DNA from: Gaiellales bacterium
GTDB taxonomy: Bacteria > Actinomycetota > Thermoleophilia > Gaiellales > Gaiellaceae
Length of the DNA stretch: 64,000 bases
Direction of reading: 5' to 3'
Assembly (NCBI GenBank): GCA_038324115.1
Contig: JBBQHQ010000001.1
Span: 3,280-67,279, forward strand
In this document: in pieces, positions 40,482 through 47,663 of the stretch
How positions within the stretch are numbered: the first letter of the stretch is position 1
How the letters are laid out: each line of letters starts with the position of its first letter
Notes under the pieces: model-generated
Database searches by the model: none
Told to the model about the DNA's origin: nothing
What the model saw: the letters and a program-made list of their open reading frames with translations, nothing else
Position numbers and translations under genes: made by a program

Positions 40482-40546
40482 GCCCGAAGGATACGGCGAT
40501 TCGCTGCGCTGCTTTCCGCATGGTCGTCCGGCGGCCCCGCGCCGGC

Positions 40547-41563
40547 TTAGGGGGCCAGGGCGCGCGAGCGGGCGAAGCGTCCGGTCCAGTAGGCCGTGCG
40601 GTCGAGATAGGACGTCTCGGCAGCGGTGCCTCGCTTCCCCCACGCCCCGTCGTAGCTCGCGTACCCGCGCTGCCTGGGCCGCGCCGGCTCGATCTGGGTG
40701 CCCTCGTGCCACTCGTTGTAGCTCGTGATCGTGACGAGGTCGGGCTTCGACTCGATCGCCCCCTGCCACATCCCGTCGTAGGTGGCGCCGTTGCGGCGCG
40801 ACTTCAGGCGCCCGTCTCCCGTGGCTCGCCTGGCGTCGTAGCCAGGCCCGACGGACGGCGCGCAGAGCAGGCCGAGCCTGTGGGCCTGGTCGCACAGCCG
40901 CGCGAAGAGGTTGCCGTCGAAGAGCAGGACGTCGTAGGTGTAGATGCCGTCGAACCCCCCCGCGGCCGCCGTTCCGGCGAGGTTCCAGTTAGCGAACACG
41001 CGGACGTCCTTGTCGAGCGAGGCGTTCAGTGCGGCCCAGTCGGTGTCGGGGACGAGCGACGAGGCCCAGAGGTAGAAGTCCCGGAGCCCGAGCGAGCGCA
41101 GCGCCGCGATGTCGAGGGCGACGCTCTCGGCGGTCCGGCCGCCGTAGGGCTCGATGTGGGCGGCGACGGTGAGCCCGTTCCGACTCGCAGCCGCGATCAC
41201 CTTGGGCAGCCGCTGGTCCTCGATCGTCCCCCGCCCCCACCAGGAGACGATCACACTCGTGACCCCGGACGCGGCGATCTCCCGCATCTGGGCGGAGACC
41301 ACGAGCTCGTCGGCCGAGGAGTACGGTCCGCGGGCCGGGTAGTACCCGGACGAGATCGCCGCCGGCGGTCGCGCCCCGCCCTGCTGCCAGTGGGCGTACT
41401 CCCCGTCCCGCTGCTCGGTCGAGAACCAGGGGTAGTAGAAGATCCCCGTCTCCGCGGCGAGCGCCTCGTGCGGACCGCCGAACCGGTCGGCCTGCGCCGC
41501 CGCACCGCCCGAGAAGCTCAGGCAGGCGAGCGCGAAGAGGGGGAGGAGCGCCGCAGGTCTCAC
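40547..41563 (-). CDS. Secreted glycoside hydrolase, GH99-like (endo-alpha-mannosidase family)
   Basis: Signal peptide MRPAALLPLFALACLSFSGGAAAQA. FYYPWF..HW at the N-terminus. ITSYNEWHEGTQIEP resembles the GH99/MANEA signature as I recall it. Confidence 0.6.
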   Translation of the reverse strand: MRPAALLPLFALACLSFSGGAAAQADRFGGPHEALAAETGIFYYPWFSTEQRDGEYAHWQQGGARPPAAISSGYYPARGPYSSADELVVSAQMREIAASGVTSVIVSWWGRGTIEDQRLPKVIAAASRNGLTVAAHIEPYGGRTAESVALDIAALRSLGLRDFYLWASSLVPDTDWAALNASLDKDVRVFANWNLAGTAAAGGFDGIYTYDVLLFDGNLFARLCDQAHRLGLLCAPSVGPGYDARRATGDGRLKSRRNGATYDGMWQGAIESKPDLVTITSYNEWHEGTQIEPARPRQRGYASYDGAWGKRGTAAETSYLDRTAYWTGRFARSRALAP

Positions 41564-41810
41564 CGACGCCCGAGGCTACACCGCCCGTCGGCCGGTTTCT
41601 ACCCCTTTACGGAGGTTCGGGCAGGACCATGTGCCTGAAGAGACGAAAACCCCGCCTGAGCAGGGTCTTCGAAGGTCGGGCCGCGGAGCCATGCGGGCTT
41701 GAGGTGCGTCGGCAGGGCCGGCGATGGCTTGGCTCAGGGAAGGCGGTTTCCGGTCGTTTGGGCCAAGAGTGGGCCACGCTCAGAGGCGGGCGCGGCACTC
41801 GCAGCGGAGG

Positions 41811-42338
41811 CTAGAGACCGGTCTGGTTCACGCCGTACACCGCCTGCTGCTCGGTGTAGCCCTCGTACATCAGCTGCGCGATGAGTCCGGAGCGGGAGAA
41901 CGCGCTGGTGTCAAGGTAGGCCTTGGCAGCCTTGGCAGCCTGCTCGTTCCAGTTGGGGCTGACGGCGTCCACGGCGTAGGTGGCGTCCACGGTGGAGTAG
42001 CCCTCGTACTCCAGCTGTTTGATCAGGCCTTTCTGGGAGAACGCGCTGGTGTCGAGGTAGGACTCGGCGCTGCGCCGGGCATTTCTCTGACCGGCGGTCT
42101 CGTCCGGAGCCTCCTCATCCAGGGCGGCCTCTGCCGCCGCCGCCGCCTCTGCCGCCGCCGCCTCTGCCGCCGCCGCCTCTGCCTCTGCCTTCACGGCCTC
42201 GTCCTCGGATTTGGCGGTCTCCTCGATCTGGACGTTCTCGTTCGCCGCGTCGTCGCCCGATGCACATCCCGTCGCGCCCATACTGATCAACGCCGACACG
42301 ACGCACGCTGCCAGCACCCACTTGAACACCTTCTTCAC
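41811..42338 (-). CDS. Ltp-family lipoprotein (two 'host cell surface-exposed lipoprotein' repeats)
   Basis: GTG at 42338 with GAAGGAGGGG upstream. Lipobox MGATGC. An Ala/Glu linker. Two repeats: A[EK]xYLDTSAFS[QR]xGLIxQL.YEGY. Confidence 0.8.
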   Translation of the reverse strand: MKKVFKWVLAACVVSALISMGATGCASGDDAANENVQIEETAKSEDEAVKAEAEAAAAEAAAAEAAAAAEAALDEEAPDETAGQRNARRSAESYLDTSAFSQKGLIKQLEYEGYSTVDATYAVDAVSPNWNEQAAKAAKAYLDTSAFSRSGLIAQLMYEGYTEQQAVYGVNQTGL

Positions 42339-42388
42339 TTCACCCCTCCTTCGTTCCGGGTTGCCGTGCCTGGTGACTCGGAAGCCGG

Positions 42389-42943
42389 TTAGCCACGCGC
42401 CGAGCTTTCGCCGGCGACCCGTCGAATGATGCGTCCAGTTTCCTCGTCAACCCATTCCTCACTCACGCCGTCATCCCAAACTTCAGGCACGTCGCGCTTG
42501 TTTTGTGCGGCCCGCTCGAAGAGGTAGTAGCCGACAACGTTCCCCTGGACAGCAACGTTCTGTCCCGACGACATGAACTTGTCGCGGCTCTGCGATCCGA
42601 GCTCTTGGAAGACGAAGCTCCCATTCAGGAGTCTCCACCCTTCGCGGCACACAGAGTTGAGGATCTCCGTCGGGTCCGCGGTCTTCGTCGTCGTGTTTGA
42701 GCCAATCATCGCCACGATGATCGCGTCCTGATGAGCGACGTTGAACGAGTACTGGAAGACGTCGTCTCCGCGCTCGTAAGCTAGGCGCGCCTGACCTGCT
42801 GGCGTGCTGAAGAACTCCGCACGTAGACGCTCCTTCTGCTTCGCCCGCTTGTCGACCTCGGCTCGTGCGGCAGCGATCCCATGCTGCCGCGCTTTCTCAG
42901 CTTGTCGCTCTTCGCGCTCCTCCGGTGAACCTCGCTTGAACAC
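42389..42943 (-). CDS. Hypothetical protein (184 aa; basic coiled-coil N-terminus, globular C-terminal domain)
   Basis: Single long frame in a lower-GC region. GTG start without an obvious Shine-Dalgarno. No family recognised. Confidence 0.55.
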   Translation of the reverse strand: MFKRGSPEEREERQAEKARQHGIAAARAEVDKRAKQKERLRAEFFSTPAGQARLAYERGDDVFQYSFNVAHQDAIIVAMIGSNTTTKTADPTEILNSVCREGWRLLNGSFVFQELGSQSRDKFMSSGQNVAVQGNVVGYYLFERAAQNKRDVPEVWDDGVSEEWVDEETGRIIRRVAGESSARG

Positions 42944-43086
42944 TTGAGCAACAACTTATTCCGATTGCTGACAAGCGGCAACTGGATCCCCAAGTCCGAC
43001 GAACAGACGAAGGGCTCCGCGCCGCCCAGCGTCGTCTTCCGCGACAAGGCGGACGCGCTCGAGCGAAGGCTGCTCGGAGTTACCGC

Positions 43087-43425
43087 CTAGTCGAGCTTCG
43101 CCAGAGCCGCCCGGGCCTCGGCTAGGGCTCGGGCGGCCAAGTCTCGAGTTGGCTCGTCGGCCCGTAGCTCGGCCGCGACGAGCGCCCGAACGTTGGCCAG
43201 ATCGTCAAGGCCGACGAGCTTCGCTTCGAGTACCCGCTGTGCTACGTCACGACGATACGTCTTCGCTTCGCCCCATTCGATCGCCGCCTTGATCTCGGCT
43301 ACGGCTTCCACGACGGCGGCGAGCCGCGCTCTGTCTCCGTCCTTGCGCTGGCGCCACGCGAACCACGCGGCGGCCGATCCAGCCACCGCGGCGACGATCG
43401 AGAAGATGAGGTTCGCCATGGTCAT
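43087..43425 (-). CDS. Hypothetical single-pass membrane protein (112 aa)
   Basis: N-terminal TM LIFSIVAAVAGSAAAWFAW followed by an Ala/Glu/Arg-rich helical region. Confidence 0.55.
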   Translation of the reverse strand: MTMANLIFSIVAAVAGSAAAWFAWRQRKDGDRARLAAVVEAVAEIKAAIEWGEAKTYRRDVAQRVLEAKLVGLDDLANVRALVAAELRADEPTRDLAARALAEARAALAKLD

Positions 43426-43427
43426 TC

Positions 43428-43445
43428 CGGTAGAAAGTTCTACCG
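43428..43445. promoter_or_regulatory. 8-bp-arm palindrome CGGTAGAA-AG-TTCTACCG abutting the start codon of the 112-aa gene (operator or translational hairpin candidate)
   Basis: Ends 2 nt upstream of ATG 43425 on the coding strand. A further AGTTCTAC half-site lies at 43561-43568. Confidence 0.3.
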
Positions 43446-43602
43446 ATCTCCGCTTGCGGTCATTCGGTGCCGCTGCTGGAGCATGAGCGGCCCGCCGATC
43501 CGCCGCGCGGGGAGCAGCCGCGTAGATCCACCCGCCGATTCGCTCCAGTTCACCCCAGTGAGTTCTACTGCGTCGCCACGCGCCCCATCTCTACGGGTGA
43601 AG

Positions 43603-44661
43603 CTACCGCTTCTTCTTTCTCCGCTGGGCGCGATTCTGCCCACCCCCCGCCGCCTGCGCGGCCTGACGTGGGAACTGTGTAGGCGGCTGCGGAGGGGCAG
43701 CTTGCACCACCATCGTCGTGGCCGCTTGGATGAATGCTCTGCCCTTTTGATTCTCGATCAGCTTGAACGCGTTCGTGCCGCTTAGCGTGTGGCTCACCGC
43801 ATGGTGAACACTCAACACCAGGTCTTGGAGGGCGTCGTCCGCCTCAAGGTCTGTCACCTTTACGTTCTGGGCGCGAGCGTCGTCGCGGCTGACCCGCCGG
43901 CCGTGTGAGCCGAAATCAGCGAACTCTGCGAACCAATGCGCGGTCGCTGCAGATTTCGTTGGAGCGTCGGCCTCTCCAGCGAACATGTAGCGTTCCAGCC
44001 ACCGCGCCACGAGGTTTTCGGCCAAGGCCCGCTGGTAATCACACTGAGCGAGCAAGCCCGGACCGTATGCGCGCAGGATCGGAAGCCAGGCAGTAACGTT
44101 GGCAGGGTTCGCGGCGCACTGCGCCTTTGCCATCTCGAACTGGTCTTTGATCGCCTGGGCGGGGGCTGACCGTGGGCCTTCGGGAGTGAAAATCGTGAAC
44201 TGAGGGTCGATCGGTCCGAGTTGAGAGTGTGAACCCATCAGGATCTCGTCGGCCCCAAGCGCAACCATAGTCGCCGCGGACATGGCAGCTATCGGAACGA
44301 TCACGCGGATGTGGTCGAAGCGGCTCCGTAGGTACTCGACGATTGACTCCGCCGCCTCAGCACTACCGCCGGGCGAGTGGATAATGAGATCGAGGTCGCG
44401 CTCGTCGACGTTGGAGACGGCTTCCATAAAGCCTTGGACATCGGACAGGTTGATGGTGACCTGATCGCCGGTGAGCTGCTTGTGCTCCATCCAGGCTGTC
44501 GCGTAGACGATCGTCGCTCGACCCGTGTGCTTCGAAAGGTCCCGGAGGTAACGACGTCGCATAACGTCGTGCGGCGACATGCCCCCGAACTCGTCAGGGT
44601 TGGCCTCAGCCCGCTTCTGTAGCTCGCTGAGCTCCTTGAGGAGCTCACCCCAGGTGGGCAA
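43603..44661 (-). CDS. SDH-family Clp-fold serine protease (S49/ClpP-like) with a poly-basic C-terminal tail
   Basis: IIHSPGGSAEAAE and IAAMSAATMVALGADEILM resemble the oxyanion and nucleophile motifs of ClpP/SppA-fold peptidases. GPIDPQ. The tail is NRAQRRKKKR. TTG start lies 6 nt after the upstream stop. Confidence 0.7.
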   Translation of the reverse strand: MPTWGELLKELSELQKRAEANPDEFGGMSPHDVMRRRYLRDLSKHTGRATIVYATAWMEHKQLTGDQVTINLSDVQGFMEAVSNVDERDLDLIIHSPGGSAEAAESIVEYLRSRFDHIRVIVPIAAMSAATMVALGADEILMGSHSQLGPIDPQFTIFTPEGPRSAPAQAIKDQFEMAKAQCAANPANVTAWLPILRAYGPGLLAQCDYQRALAENLVARWLERYMFAGEADAPTKSAATAHWFAEFADFGSHGRRVSRDDARAQNVKVTDLEADDALQDLVLSVHHAVSHTLSGTNAFKLIENQKGRAFIQAATTMVVQAAPPQPPTQFPRQAAQAAGGGQNRAQRRKKKR

Positions 44662-44667
44662 CGATGC

Positions 44668-44853
44668 CTAGGTGTGAGTCGCGTATTCGACGGACGGCTG
44701 GGGAACCGTCGCGGCCGAGACTGCCGCGAAGTAGCGCTGCTCGATCTGCTCGTACACGGCCACAAGATCGCCGACGCCCGCCTCAGCCTGCTCGACTATT
44801 TCACGGATGTCATCATCCGTGACGGTGATCTCCCTCGTCTCGTGCTCGCTCAT
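44668..44853 (-). CDS. Hypothetical small acidic protein (61 aa), first gene of the island pair
   Basis: ATG with GAGGATGG 7 nt upstream. 13 Asp/Glu versus 3 Arg and no Lys. No family recognised. Confidence 0.6.
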   Translation of the reverse strand: MSEHETREITVTDDDIREIVEQAEAGVGDLVAVYEQIEQRYFAAVSAATVPQPSVEYATHT

Positions 44854-45052
44854 GCGATTCCATCCTCAGCAGTCGGTGACCAGACTTTAGCGGCGTTTCT
44901 CGGATTCCCTGGAATCATCGGCGATTCACGAGCCGGTGACAACCCCTCTGTCCAGACGAGAAGGGTTTGCTTGCCATCAGCGAACCCGCCAAGACCTGGC
45001 CGATGCTCGGCCGGCGAATGAGCCCGCCTCCGAGGATTGCCCCACGCAGAAA

Positions 45053-45069
45053 CCCCCAACTAGTGGGGG
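45053..45069 (-). terminator. Short hairpin plus U-run just after the tRNA-Pro 3' end
   Basis: On the minus strand: CCCCCA-CTAGT-TGGGGG followed by TTTC. Confidence 0.45.
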
Positions 45070-45079
45070 CTTCCGCTCA

Positions 45080-45154
45080 TCGGGGCGCCGAGATTTGAAC
45101 TCGGGACCTCTAGTCCCCCAGACTAGCGCGCTAACCAGGCTGCGCCACGCCCCG
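45080..45154 (-). tRNA. tRNA-Pro (anticodon GGG)
   Basis: 75-nt cloverleaf folded by hand: acceptor CGGGGCG/CGCCCCG, D stem GCGC/GCGC, anticodon stem CTAGT/ACTAG with loop CTGGGGG, T arm CCGAG-TTCAAAT-CTCGG, discriminator A. CCA is not encoded. Confidence 0.95.
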
Positions 45155-45199
45155 CGACGCCCCGCACGGTAGCAAGCGGGATCGCGCCCCGTGCCCGAC

Positions 45200-46582
45200 T
45201 CAGCCCGGCTCGATGTTCTGGTTCAGCCGGAAGAGGTTCTCGGGGTCGAACTGCCGCTTCAGCGCCCGCAGCCGCTCGTACTTCGCGGCACCGTAGGCGT
45301 CCCGGACGCGATCGGCTCCCTCGTCGCCGAGGAAGTTGACATAGACGCCCTGATGCCACGGCTCGAGCGCCGACCAGAAGCCACGCACCCACTCCACCTC
45401 GGCGTCGAACCCCTCGGCGGTCTCCGTGCAGGCACCGATGTTGTAGGTGAAGCCCGCCCCGCGGCCGCTGAACGCGGTCTCGTCCTCGCCGACCCGGGCG
45501 ACCGCGCCCCCCATCTGCCAGATCGGAAACGAGGTCAGCGGAGAGTCGATCGCAAGCGAGCGCTCGACGGTGACGTCGATGATCTCGTCGGTCAGCTCGG
45601 GAATGTCGCAGCTCTTGAAGTAGTAGAAGCGGCCCGCGGGGAAGCTCGGGTCGAGCATCGCCTGGTGCGCGACGAAGGGCTTCTGGACGCATCCGTCGAA
45701 GACGGGCGAGCCGAACTCGCGCAAGGGCTTCAGGAACCGCTCCCCCTCCCCGGCGTCGCCGATCCAGCAGGGGATCACCATCACGACCGGCTGCCCGTGC
45801 AGTTCGGCAGGGATGAAGGGCAGCGGCGGCGCCTTGCGGTGGACGACGATCGTCATCAGCTCGTCGGGCGCGTCCGCGACCCAGTCGCGGTAGAAGCGGA
45901 GGACGTCGCCGGACTGGGTCATCGGCCAGATCAACGGGCCGGCGAGCACCTGCGGCCCGAGCGGCACGCACTCGAACTCGAACTCGGTCACGATCCCGAA
46001 GTTGCCCCCGCCGCCGCGGAGGCCCCAGAAGAGCTCGGCGTTCTCCTCGGCGCTCGCGTGGACGAGCTCGCCGTCCGCCGTGACGAGGTCGACGGAGCGG
46101 AGGCGGTCGACCGAGAGCCCGTGTTTGCGCATGATCCAGCCGATCCCGCCGCCGAGCGTCAGCCCTGCCACGCCGGTGTGGGTGACGATTCCGGACGGGA
46201 CCGCGAGCGAGAACGCCTGCGTCTCGCGGTCGAGCTCGCCGAGGAGCACGCCGGCCTGGACGCGGGCCGTCCGCCGGATCGGATCAACGCGGATCCCTTT
46301 CAGGGGCGAAAGGTCGATCATGAGCGCGTCGTCGGCGACCGAGTGTCCCGGGAACGAGTGCCCCCCACTCCGGACGGCGATCGGCAGGCCGGAGGTGCGC
46401 CCGAGCTTGACGGCGGCGATCACGTCGGCGACGCCGGCACAGCGGACGATCACGGCGGGGCGCCGGTCGATCGAGCCGTTCCAGATCCGGCGCAGACTGT
46501 CGTAGTCCGGGTCCGCCGCGCCCACGATCGCGCCGCGGAACTGGGTCTCGTCGAGCTCGATGGAGCTGAGAACCGAAGCCAT
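45200..46582 (-). CDS. FAD-binding oxidoreductase (FAD_binding_4/PCMH type) with a BBE-like C-terminus
   Basis: PAVIVRCAGVADVIAAVKLGRTSGLPIAVRSGGHS. C-terminal YVNF..YGAAKYERLRALKRQFDPENLFRLNQNI. Confidence 0.85.
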   Translation of the reverse strand: MASVLSSIELDETQFRGAIVGAADPDYDSLRRIWNGSIDRRPAVIVRCAGVADVIAAVKLGRTSGLPIAVRSGGHSFPGHSVADDALMIDLSPLKGIRVDPIRRTARVQAGVLLGELDRETQAFSLAVPSGIVTHTGVAGLTLGGGIGWIMRKHGLSVDRLRSVDLVTADGELVHASAEENAELFWGLRGGGGNFGIVTEFEFECVPLGPQVLAGPLIWPMTQSGDVLRFYRDWVADAPDELMTIVVHRKAPPLPFIPAELHGQPVVMVIPCWIGDAGEGERFLKPLREFGSPVFDGCVQKPFVAHQAMLDPSFPAGRFYYFKSCDIPELTDEIIDVTVERSLAIDSPLTSFPIWQMGGAVARVGEDETAFSGRGAGFTYNIGACTETAEGFDAEVEWVRGFWSALEPWHQGVYVNFLGDEGADRVRDAYGAAKYERLRALKRQFDPENLFRLNQNIEPG

Positions 46583-46644: not shown

Positions 46645-47367
46645 GTGTTCGACCACGTGACGATCCGGGTCGCCGACCGGGACGCCTCAGCGGCGTTCTA
46701 CGTGACCGTGCTGGCGGAGCTCGGGATCGAGCAGACGTACTCCGATCCCGAGCTGGCGGAATGGGACGAGTTCTCGCTCTCGCCGGCGAGCGCGGAGAAG
46801 CCCGCCACCCGCGGCCTCCACCTCGGCTTCTCGGCGCCCTCGCGCGAGCATGTCGACCGCTTCTGGCGCACAGGCGTGGACGCGGGCTACCGCAGCGACG
46901 GCGAGCCCGGCGTCAGGACGCTCTACCTTGAGGACTACTACGGCGCCTTCCTGCTGGATACCGACGGGAACAGCGCGGAGGCGGTTCACCACGGCGCCGT
47001 TCGCCGGGGAACGCTCGACCACCTCTGGATCCGGGTTGCGGACGTGGCCGCGTCACGGCGCTTCTACGAGGCCGCGGCTCCGTACGGCGGCTACCGGATT
47101 GGCGAGCCGCTGCCCGAGTACGCCTGGTTCGCCTGGGCGCCCGGCTCCTTCTCGGTCACGCTCGGGGAGCCGACCCGGAACGTGCACCTCGCGTTCGCCG
47201 TCGACACGAACGCCGAGGTGGACGACTTCTATCGGCAGCTGACGGAGGCCGGCTACCGCGACAACGGGCCTCCCGGCGAGCGGACCGAATATCACCCGGG
47301 CTACTACGGCGCCTTCGTGCTCGACCCCGACGGGAACAACGTCGAGGCGGTCTGCCACAACCGCTAG
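46645..47367 (+). CDS. Two-domain VOC (glyoxalase/bleomycin-resistance/dioxygenase) family protein
   Basis: Duplicated HV.IRV.D...S..FY modules, each ending DPDGN..E. Confidence 0.8.
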   Translation: MFDHVTIRVADRDASAAFYVTVLAELGIEQTYSDPELAEWDEFSLSPASAEKPATRGLHLGFSAPSREHVDRFWRTGVDAGYRSDGEPGVRTLYLEDYYGAFLLDTDGNSAEAVHHGAVRRGTLDHLWIRVADVAASRRFYEAAAPYGGYRIGEPLPEYAWFAWAPGSFSVTLGEPTRNVHLAFAVDTNAEVDDFYRQLTEAGYRDNGPPGERTEYHPGYYGAFVLDPDGNNVEAVCHNR

Positions 47368-47663
47368 GCGCTGAGCCGCTTGTAGAGCCGGTCGACGAGG
47401 TGCGGCATCGACTCCAGCCTGTCCGTGATCACGCGCAGCCGATACTCGCGGAAGTGCTCGGGCTCGACGGAGAGGGCCTCCGCGAGCCGCTCGACCACGT
47501 CCATCGAAGGGACGGGGCGGTTGCCGTGCACGAGGTGGTTCAGGTAGCCGGCCGAGAGCTGGGTCTTCGCCGCCAACCCCCGGTAGGTGAGCCCGGTGTC
47601 GGCCATCAGGCGCTCGATCGTGGGCCCGAACGGGTCGTCGCTGTAGCGCTTCCGTCGTGTCAT
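47364..47663 (-). CDS. XRE-family helix-turn-helix protein (99 aa)
   Basis: TYRGLAAKTQLSAGYLNHLVHGNRPVPSMDVVERLAEAL. ATGA overlap with the proS stop. Its stop overlaps the VOC stop in a CTAG. Confidence 0.75.
   Translation of the reverse strand: MTRRKRYSDDPFGPTIERLMADTGLTYRGLAAKTQLSAGYLNHLVHGNRPVPSMDVVERLAEALSVEPEHFREYRLRVITDRLESMPHLVDRLYKRLSA

Follow-up and report, generated by a model that had tools for sequence, protein, structure and literature searches.

Why does a compact block of low-GC genes lie directly beside a transfer RNA (tRNA) gene in a GC-rich actinobacterial contig, and do these genes work together? The block comprises five open reading frames (ORFs) at 41811–45079, between a GH99 gene and tRNA-Pro(GGG), in a 64,000-nucleotide stretch of contig JBBQHQ010000001.1 from a Gaiellales bacterium; this whole stretch is referred to as the window. 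An earlier note, made from the letters alone, had taken the five genes to be one uncharacterised phage-exclusion module. Our own reading, to which we assign a probability of roughly 0.55, is that the block is an islet without an integrase, inserted site-specifically at the 3′ end of the tRNA-Pro(GGG) gene, and that it is a mosaic of moron-type modules. One of these is a pair of genes, for a small acidic protein and a ClpP-fold serine protease, with a presumed proteolytic mechanism. The description of the islet and of this two-gene cassette is, in our judgement, very likely right; the assignment of the cassette to defence or addiction is more tentative, and we place it somewhat below even odds.

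A compositional islet at the tRNA 3′ end

The five genes stand out by their composition. The stretch 41811–45079 has a GC content of 63.5%, against a mean of 70.6% (standard deviation (sd) 1.3, minimum 67.8%) in non-overlapping 3.27-kb windows across the rest of the 64 kb. This difference of about 7 points, or about 5 sd, makes the islet the compositional minimum of the entire window. The GC content at third codon positions (GC3) is 0.72–0.87 in the five islet genes and 0.91–0.96 in seven flanking genes. The drop in composition between the GH99 gene and tRNA-Pro, pointed out in the earlier note, is thus borne out by both measures, while its figure of 75–80% GC for the flanks proved an overestimate. 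All five ORFs lie on the minus strand, with intergenic gaps of 6, 177, 143 and 50 nt in order from the tRNA side; the common strand, the three larger gaps and the neighbouring tRNA had been described correctly. According to the ORF list and Pfam, none of the five encodes an integrase or transposase, as had likewise been observed.

We located a relative through the neighbouring BBE-type oxidase gene, whose homologue is 96% identical and lies on a contig of GCA_046598095.1 (locus L086). The nearest named relatives of this contig and of the window contig are annotated as Gaiellaceae. In blastn alignments, L086 1–11511 corresponds to window 56560–45080, and L086 11499–12369 to window 41688–40818. 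In L086, at 96% DNA identity, the site is empty, with the last base of the tRNA joined straight to the region upstream of the GH99 gene. A comparison of this kind had been suggested for settling presence or absence and the borders, which it places at 41676 and 45079; the true distal border is therefore 41676 and not 41811.

The overlap between the two alignments is a 13-nt direct repeat of the tRNA 3′ end, whose copies CTCGGCGCCCCGA and CTCCGCGGCCCGA agree at 11 of 13 positions; the att core of the islet can be written as CTCSGCGSCCCGA. The attB, attL and attR junctions share this 13-nt core when aligned, and 36 nt of the tRNA 3′ end are identical in L086. Such a repeat had been reported as missing, and searches of our own with two 21-nt patterns (up to three mismatches) and with a generic repeat finder also returned no tRNA-end repeat; it was found through the empty-site comparison. 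As read from the alignment, a tRNA-end junction with a flanking repeat is the hallmark of an element integrated site-specifically at the 3′ end of a tRNA, and the stretch 41676–45079 is a horizontally acquired, mobile unit.

An alternative is that the insertion is only apparent, reflecting a deletion or misassembly in the metagenome-assembled contig of the relative, with the 13-nt repeat arising by chance. Both assemblies seem to derive from metagenomes, the L086 contig stops 870 bp past the junction, and the repeat is only an 11/13 match. However, the breakpoint in L086 falls exactly at the last base of the tRNA and at the repeat, with the 13-nt overlap aligned to both window sites, and the missing stretch coincides with the compositional island. 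Analogous islets at other tRNAs, described below, also carry much longer repeats (about 36 nt in L004 and 27 nt in L026). We consider this alternative highly improbable. Two further relatives found through the BBE gene (L088 and L089, 82% identity) were set aside as presence/absence references, being not syntenic at the islet site.

The insertion also appears to have separated the tRNA from its terminator. The hairpin CCCTGCTCAGGCGGGG is probably the native tRNA terminator, because it follows the tRNA directly in L086; the islet would have displaced it by 3.4 kb. A second hairpin, CCCCCACTAGTTGGGGG, which belongs to the islet, would then act as a terminator-like stand-in.

A mosaic with a conserved two-gene cassette

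Several features would fit the single phage-exclusion system proposed in the earlier note. The five genes share a strand and a similar composition, they arrived or were lost together relative to L086, and a membrane protein and a lipoprotein beside a protease could suggest an envelope-associated system. We searched the five islet proteins with tblastn against 85 other loci that carry the protease. The 61-aa protein was found, while the 112-aa membrane protein (TM112), the 184-aa protein (orf184) and the Ltp-type lipoprotein (Ltp) were found in none of the 85. In an all-against-all clustering of about 1,150 neighbouring ORFs, the only conserved families were the protease and the small upstream protein, with no third gene family conserved beside them.

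The DNA alignments likewise stop at the edges of single modules. The window is 86% identical to L004 and L005 over 44879–43602 only, that is, from 26 nt before the small gene to the protease stop codon, and 94% identical to L094 over 42991–42364 only, which is orf184. Because the similarity ends at single-module borders and the modules do not co-occur, they circulate independently, like phage morons. The intergenic gaps of 50–177 nt also suit separate units, and orf184 is found elsewhere without the other genes. It is thus very unlikely that the five genes act together as one system. Co-occurrence across genomes, which had been put forward as a check on the module, holds for the small protein with the protease and fails for the other three genes. 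The conserved unit is the cassette of small acidic protein and protease, which the earlier note had not singled out.

Co-divergence of the small protein and the protease

Iterated profile searches placed a homologue of the small protein directly upstream of the protease in 78 of the 85 loci, and nearly all 85 have an ORF of 55–80 aa whose end falls anywhere from 29 nt within the protease gene to about 28 nt ahead of its start. Of the remaining seven loci, six carry a small ORF upstream with a Ser/Thr-rich tail at its end (only a weak one in L002); in the seventh, L077, the sole upstream ORF lies 190 nt off and is without such a tail. The small gene is also present beside the protease in viral contigs of IMG/VR.

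Members of the small-protein family have a median length of 68 aa and a median net charge of −5. Their core motif, (E/Q)(A/P)G(V/I)x(D/E)L..Y..E..Y..A, is followed by a hydrophobic patch and then by a C-terminal tail, for example TSNSTN, TTNSSS or YATHT. The 61-aa protein of the window carries the motif as EAGVxDL..Y..E..Y and has a Ser/Thr-rich tail ending in YATHT. Searches against Pfam (with 55 sequences), PHROGs, NCBIfam, PADLOC and PDB sequences assigned the small protein to no family, with noise-level matches only.

The pairwise identities of the small protein and of the protease are strongly correlated (Mantel r 0.81, p 0.001), and the small protein diverges much faster, with a mean identity of 23% against 53% for the protease. 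Judging from these patterns, the protease and its small partner form a pair that is inherited together and diverges together in Bacteria, Archaea and phages alike.

The sigma-70-like consensus match upstream of the small gene is the only one in the region, where 0.3 would be expected by chance. At window 44661–44670, the small gene and the protease are in frame, with the TAG stop followed by two codons (GCA TCG) and then by the TTG start. Read-through of the stop codon, which would fuse the two proteins, was considered and dropped, since the spacing is mostly out of frame in other loci.

Fold and family of the protease

Pfam supports the two families that had been recognised from the sequence, an SDH-family Clp-fold protease and an Ltp-type lipoprotein, and gives no match for the 61-, 112- and 184-aa proteins. 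The protease matches PF01972 (SDH_protease) at 69.1 bits (cut-off 31.3; E 4.3e-19) over profile positions 37–160 of 286, which correspond to the catalytic core. With the NCBIfam equivalog NF047768, "SDH family Clp fold serine proteinase", it reaches 79.9 bits and falls short of the cut-off of 250. Because of this shortfall we class it, on sequence grounds, as a distinct SDH/S49-like ClpP-fold subfamily, with a partner from an undescribed family. NCBIfam returned nothing beyond sub-threshold Clp-like matches for the islet proteins, and a match to NfeD1b_N was also below its cut-off (28.6 against 40 bits). The statement that the protease fits no named defence system agrees with PADLOC-DB 2.0.0, in which none of the five islet proteins matched a family at E values up to 0.1.

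The AlphaFold2 model of the protease, built on 36 sequences, has a mean predicted local distance difference test (pLDDT) score of 89.4 and a predicted TM-score (pTM) of 0.84. It comprises a ClpP/crotonase-type core (residues ~48–167), a helical domain (residues ~168–313) and a disordered, Pro-rich tail that ends in basic residues. Among solved structures, the best Foldseek matches were the stomatin-specific protease NfeD 1510-N and SppA (7e-5 to 1e-3, with 1510-N at 7e-5), and ClpP; among viral models they were "serine dehydrogenase proteinases" of giant viruses. Ser128, in the sequence AAMSAATM, is invariant in the 36 sequences and aligns with the catalytic Ser of 1510-N, and the block MGxHSQLGPIDPQ is likewise invariant. 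Ser128 is thus the predicted nucleophile. The protease has no signal peptide or transmembrane segment, in contrast to SppA and NfeD.

More than 4000 homologues of the protease were found at E <= 1e-5; the exact sequence from the window has no record in the assembly index. A scan of one genome per species identified relatives of 45–64% identity in Actinomycetota, Chloroflexota, Nitrospirota, Acidobacteriota, Myxococcota, Bacteroidota, Planctomycetota and Pseudomonadota, and in archaea including Methanomassiliicoccales, Nitrososphaeria, Halobellus and an Asgard archaeon. In one homologue, P0118 (372 aa), the basic tail is replaced by a terminal SEC-C-type metal-binding motif (…CPCGSGRKYKLCHG, Pfam PF02810).

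Genomic contexts of the cassette

A tRNA lies within 1.5 kb of the cassette in 13 of 81 genome loci. Eight of these 13 share the arrangement of the window, in which the tRNA 3′ end is followed by the small gene and then the protease; by a rough estimate, about 1% of loci would be expected to do so. A tyrosine integrase directly follows the protease in L049, L060 and L064, and lies 2.5 kb downstream in L009. Two further repeat-flanked islets have no integrase. At tRNA-Trp (L004:3849–6760), about 36 nt of the tRNA 3′ end are repeated 2.8 kb away, enclosing three genes: the cassette, with 92% protein identity to that of the window, and a gene for a 211-aa protein with noise-level family matches. 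At tRNA-Ala (L026:7018–9121), the islet measures 2.0 kb, holds the cassette alone between the copies of a 27-nt imperfect repeat, and has a GC content of 62.6% against 69.2% in its flanks. The distal repeat of L026 is a diverged tRNA 3′ half in which the T-stem is changed on both strands (CCGG/CCGG to GGGG/CCCC).

The tRNA species used in the window also appears in L050 (9303–15870), from an Acidimicrobiaceae metagenome-assembled genome. There the cassette lies just 5′ of tRNA-Pro(GGG), with an integrase upstream of it, and a separate 6.5-kb stretch 3′ of the tRNA terminates in a perfect 31-nt copy of the tRNA end. These two stretches may be islands in tandem, at the tRNA species that is also occupied in the window.

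The cassette is likewise found in complete phage genomes. A Shewanella Mu-like phage has it between the late regulator C and the lysis genes, and Porphyromonas phages have it beside HicAB. The protease homologue of Gordonia phage BeeGee, gp31, is flanked by a minor tail gene and by the integrase region. An unannotated 58-aa ORF in this phage (L001:5825–6001; MW601219 26498–26674) shares 1 nt with the beginning of gp31, and its product ends in …VRYSTSATR; this ORF seems to be the small-partner gene that the GenBank annotation lacks. From their gene neighbourhoods, the cassette positions in complete phage genomes can be described as moron-like. Clear relatives of the protease (E <= 2e-36) occur on 18 viral contigs of IMG/VR. 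Ten such proviral contigs exceed 30 kb; the protease lies at most about 1 kb from a contig end in four of them and within 7 kb in eight.

These occurrences raise the question of whether the cassette serves the phage or element itself, either as a lysogeny or regulatory protease (for example, by cleaving a repressor) or in counter-defence. The small protein would then be a regulator and the islet a neutral remnant. Such a role would suit the Mu-like and BeeGee positions, and related ClpP-fold proteases of phages are head-maturation proteases. Proteases of the lambda gpC prohead type, which are also phage-carried, indeed appear as secondary PHROG (3e-10) and NCBIfam (1e-10) matches over the catalytic core. 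The best PHROG of the cassette protease is, however, a separate and functionally unannotated one, phrog_11747, at 1e-78, and in the genome loci the cassette has no capsid, portal or scaffold genes next to it. The cassette also persists alone in cellular islets, in L026, L004 and the window without any integrase or phage gene, and an identity of 45–60% across phyla and into Archaea is hard to square with a phage-specific repressor or capsid target. We regard service to the phage as unlikely, though it is the strongest of the competing explanations.

Defence genes are a further recurrent element of the neighbourhood. ORFs less than 2 kb from the cassette match 173 and 190 PADLOC families (1e-8), several of them repeatedly, against 79 families, none more than once, for distal ORFs 5–8 kb away; this comparison sets near against distal ORFs of the same loci rather than against a true genome background, and some of the loci come from related genomes. 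The near matches include mad2 (nine ORFs), type I and type IIG restriction-modification, AriA, PbeA, DarG, PDC-S05, PDC-S14, SspH and DrmMI. By Pfam, the neighbours include DNA methylases, AAA_15/21 ATPases, integrases, and ORF6N and RAMA domains. The association of the cassette with defence and mobile genes appears to be real but moderate, because many neighbours are ordinary housekeeping genes. In four Nitrospirales loci (L016, L017, L019 and L021), large Eco57I-like methylase genes that match PADLOC mad2 (MADS system) lie about 3–6 kb upstream of the cassette, and the small gene overlaps the protease start by 29 nt.

The housekeeping neighbours would also fit a protease with an ordinary role in the cell, whose partner resembles a chaperone or a pro-peptide and whose location in an island is incidental. 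The SDH and S49 families do include cellular signal-peptide peptidases, according to the Pfam description and the Foldseek match to SppA. Against this stand the absence of the cassette from a 96%-identical relative, its patchy, cross-domain distribution at high identity, and its repeated linkage to tRNA att sites, integrases, restriction-modification genes and proviral ends. The protease itself also differs, having neither the signal peptide nor the transmembrane segments of SppA and NfeD and scoring below the cut-off for the Clp_like_SDH equivalog of NCBIfam. An ordinary cellular role is improbable, and more so than service to the phage.

A possible proteolytic circuit

The islet itself is of a known kind, a tRNA-integrated remnant resembling a cis-mobilizable element (CIME). 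Because it has no integrase of its own, it is most likely either the cargo end, next to the att site, that a temperate phage or integrative element left behind when its integrase and body were deleted, or a CIME-like element moved in trans by an integrase. The wording "defence islet or prophage remnant" used in the earlier note is a fair description of such tRNA-adjacent foreign DNA without a recombinase. The modules of the islet are the coupled cassette, a single-pass membrane protein, the phage-associated orf184 and an Ltp-type lipoprotein of the kind that blocks phage DNA injection.

Borders, mosaicism, pair conservation, fold and genomic contexts are all observed; the proteolytic relationship between the two cassette proteins, like any defence or addiction phenotype, is a proposal. 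We hypothesize that the small protein is the cognate substrate or gatekeeper of the protease, and that its conserved tail, hydrophobic and then Ser/Thr-rich, engages the protease active site. Acting as substrate, inhibitor or licensed effector, the tail would close a proteolytic circuit. The pair could thus form a self-contained, toxin-antitoxin-like or proteolysis-gated module that benefits its mobile element by excluding competing phages or by addiction.

Four lines of reasoning lead to this circuit. First, the closest structural relatives of the protease act on C-terminal segments, of the stomatin operon partner for NfeD or of the protease itself for SppA, as the titles of PDB entries 3viv and 4kwb indicate. 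Second, the high cross-domain identity argues against a host- or phage-specific target. Third, the cassette persists alone after loss of the element (L026), as addiction modules or beneficial defence modules do. Fourth, the logic has precedents in defence: small upstream propeptides with C-terminal tail cleavage are established in modules that pair a protease with a propeptide effector in antiviral defence (Pepco/Trypco and EACC1; bioRxiv 10.1101/2025.11.14.688446), and a serine-protease toxin is known from IetAS, a stabilising toxin-antitoxin (TA) and anti-phage system, as cited in PMC13069673. In its full form, the proposal is of a new mobile system in Bacteria, Archaea and phages, in which a Clp-fold protease is gated by, or activates, its partner through the tail, mediates exclusion or addiction, and remains in mini-islets as elements decay. 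We put this forward as possible, with the odds leaning against it.

Several observations weigh against the proposal. No fusion of small protein and protease was found among 45 representative clusters; the 455-aa protease P0028, for instance, has a C-terminal extension only. None of the DNA-binding domains of type II antitoxins (helix-turn-helix (HTH), ribbon-helix-helix or AbrB) was detected by Pfam in 55 small proteins, and the small protein is without the hydrophobic segment expected of a pore-forming effector. Among the neighbours of the cassette, many are housekeeping genes by Pfam, and the defence association is inflated by related genomes, such as the four Nitrospirales loci. The 13-nt repeat is short and imperfect, and L086 is the only close relative, so that excision there and insertion here are indistinguishable; the stretch is a mobile unit either way.

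Comparison with known systems

NfeD 1510-N and the signal-peptide peptidase SppA (MEROPS S49/ClpP clan) are the best structural matches to the protease core, with the nucleophile Ser aligned, and the cassette partner also has a conserved C-terminal tail. The cassette protease differs in that transmembrane segments, a signal peptide and the OB-fold C-domain of NfeD are all missing, and in that a helical domain of ~150 aa and a basic tail are added; at sequence level the resemblance is marginal (E 0.4). Its partner is an acidic protein of 55–80 aa instead of a member of the SPFH/stomatin group, and the cassette is a mobile, accessory unit and not a housekeeping one.

The Pepco and EACC1 modules resemble the cassette in the small protein immediately upstream of a serine protease, the hydrophobic residue followed by a C-terminal tail, the wide horizontal spread and the defence contexts. 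Their proteases, however, are of the trypsin-like or caspase-like type and carry fused sensors, for example STAND, whereas the cassette protease is ClpP-fold, with no sensor domain recognised. In a search for Pepco (Trypco) or EACC1 membership, 55 small partners gave no Pfam family beyond noise; Pfam presumably holds models of both Trypco and EACC1. A pore-forming role is unlikely for the small protein, which is acidic and helical, without membrane-active features.

Like the IetAS system, the cassette is a two-gene mobile module with a serine protease, and it outlasts the decay of its element as addiction modules do; IetS, by contrast, is subtilisin-like and has an AAA ATPase as partner, in place of a ClpP-fold protease with a small acidic one. 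Type II TA systems share with the cassette a bicistronic layout, with a small upstream gene coupled to a larger one, as well as mobility and a patchy distribution across phyla. They differ in the DNA-binding domain of the antitoxin, which the small cassette protein does not have. In full-text literature on SDH proteases, DUF114, S49 and ClpP-like proteases in phage defence, we found no description of the cassette.

The islet resembles CIMEs and decayed prophage ends in its insertion at a tRNA 3′ end, its direct repeats, the missing integrase, its absence from a relative and its accessory cargo. Compared with CIMEs it is very small (3.4 kb), its repeat is short and imperfect, and mobilisation in trans is putative; the occurrence of the same cassette in mini-islets at three tRNAs (Pro, Trp and Ala) is unusual. 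Small tRNA-linked islets are routine, and the new part is the sharply defined, uncharacterised two-gene module. If this module is a defence or addiction system, it would bring a ClpP-fold protease into the expanding group of immune modules gated by proteolysis and offer a simple two-protein model for E. coli, Mycobacterium or Streptomyces. The three parallel mini-islets provide a clean case for studying cargo survival during element decay or movement in trans.

Accompanying genes and features

The Ltp protein has the architecture of the superinfection-exclusion protein of phage TP-J34, a family to which it had already been linked. By inspection, its signal peptide has the lipobox MKKVFKWVLAACVVSALISMGATG|C, with Cys25, followed by an Ala/Glu-rich linker and two Ltp repeats, which PF07553 matches in two stretches (5.1e-27); the gene contains an internal 75-nt repeat that is 79% identical. 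Superinfection-exclusion PHROGs match Ltp at 1e-31. Phage records with homologues number 133, 100 of them from Gordonia phages; the homologues are labelled lipoprotein or superinfection exclusion and are about 33% identical to Ltp over the full length. By these matches, the islet gene is a new member of a known family. It shares with Ltp of TP-J34 from Streptococcus thermophilus the lipobox Cys, the flexible linker, the two repeats and the location on a mobile element; it differs in its host, a high-GC actinobacterium, and its exclusion function is putative. To our knowledge, many PF07553 proteins are without a demonstrated role. Within the linker (window 42104–42184), a 15-nt tandem repeat of GCCGCCGCCGCCTCT units encodes (EAAAA)n and could make the linker a length-variable spacer.

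Homologues of orf184 number at least 237 and are without annotation. The protein has no match among PDB sequences, phage GenBank records or Pfam and NCBIfam families, and its AlphaFold2 model (pLDDT 85) resembles no fold in the PDB (best match, E 0.16). One homologue is part of an element that also encodes TerL, a resolvase, an excisionase-type HTH protein and a DNA methylase. In metagenome contigs L090–L092, a conserved phage-like block comprises an HTH_36 replication protein, a 127-aa gene, the orf184 homologue, genes of 231 and 173 aa, DUF7689, a resolvase, an excisionase-type HTH gene and TerL. A block of this type is a possible source of the orf184 module of the window. TM112 is an orphan, with only weak matches to holin-like PHROGs (E 0.02–0.04). 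A scan of 40500–46000 against Rfam found no RNA family besides the tRNA. The coordinates of all features are collected in Table 1.

Table 1. Features of the islet and its borders, in window coordinates
Feature	Coordinates	Strand	Basis
Inserted islet, 3,404 bp including one repeat copy	41676–45079	−	Absent from L086
Mobile two-gene cassette, extent	43602–44879	−	86% DNA identity to L004/L005
tRNA-Pro(GGG), integration target, 3′ end abutting the islet	45080–45154	−	ARAGORN; Rfam tRNA, 62.4 bits
attL-like core, tRNA-end repeat copy CTCGGCGCCCCGA	45080–45092	−	L086 11499–11511 aligns to both sites
attR-like core, distal repeat copy CTCCGCGGCCCGA	41676–41688	−	L086 11499–11511 aligns to both sites
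Islet hairpin CCCCCACTAGTTGGGGG + TTTCT, directly 3′ of the tRNA, terminator-like	45048–45069	−	Read from sequence
Hairpin CCCTGCTCAGGCGGGG + TTTT, beyond attR	41646–41665	−	Junction alignment
Sigma-70-like promoter match TTGTCA-17-GATGAT, ~60 nt upstream of the small gene	44914–44942	−	Consensus match only
Small acidic partner protein, 61 aa	44668–44853	−	ORF
SDH-type ClpP-fold serine protease, 352 aa, TTG start	43603–44661	−	ORF; PF01972
TM112, single-pass membrane protein, 112 aa	43087–43425	−	ORF
orf184, 184 aa, fold without PDB match	42389–42943	−	ORF; homologues
Ltp-type lipoprotein, 175 aa	41811–42338	−	PF07553

Outside the islet, a 99-aa XRE-type HTH gene (window 47364–47663) overlaps the 3′ end of the prolyl-tRNA synthetase (ProRS) gene at the stop codon, by 4 nt. 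The pair of HTH and ProRS genes is kept in L086, and it is unusual for an HTH gene to share what looks like an operon with an aminoacyl-tRNA synthetase gene.

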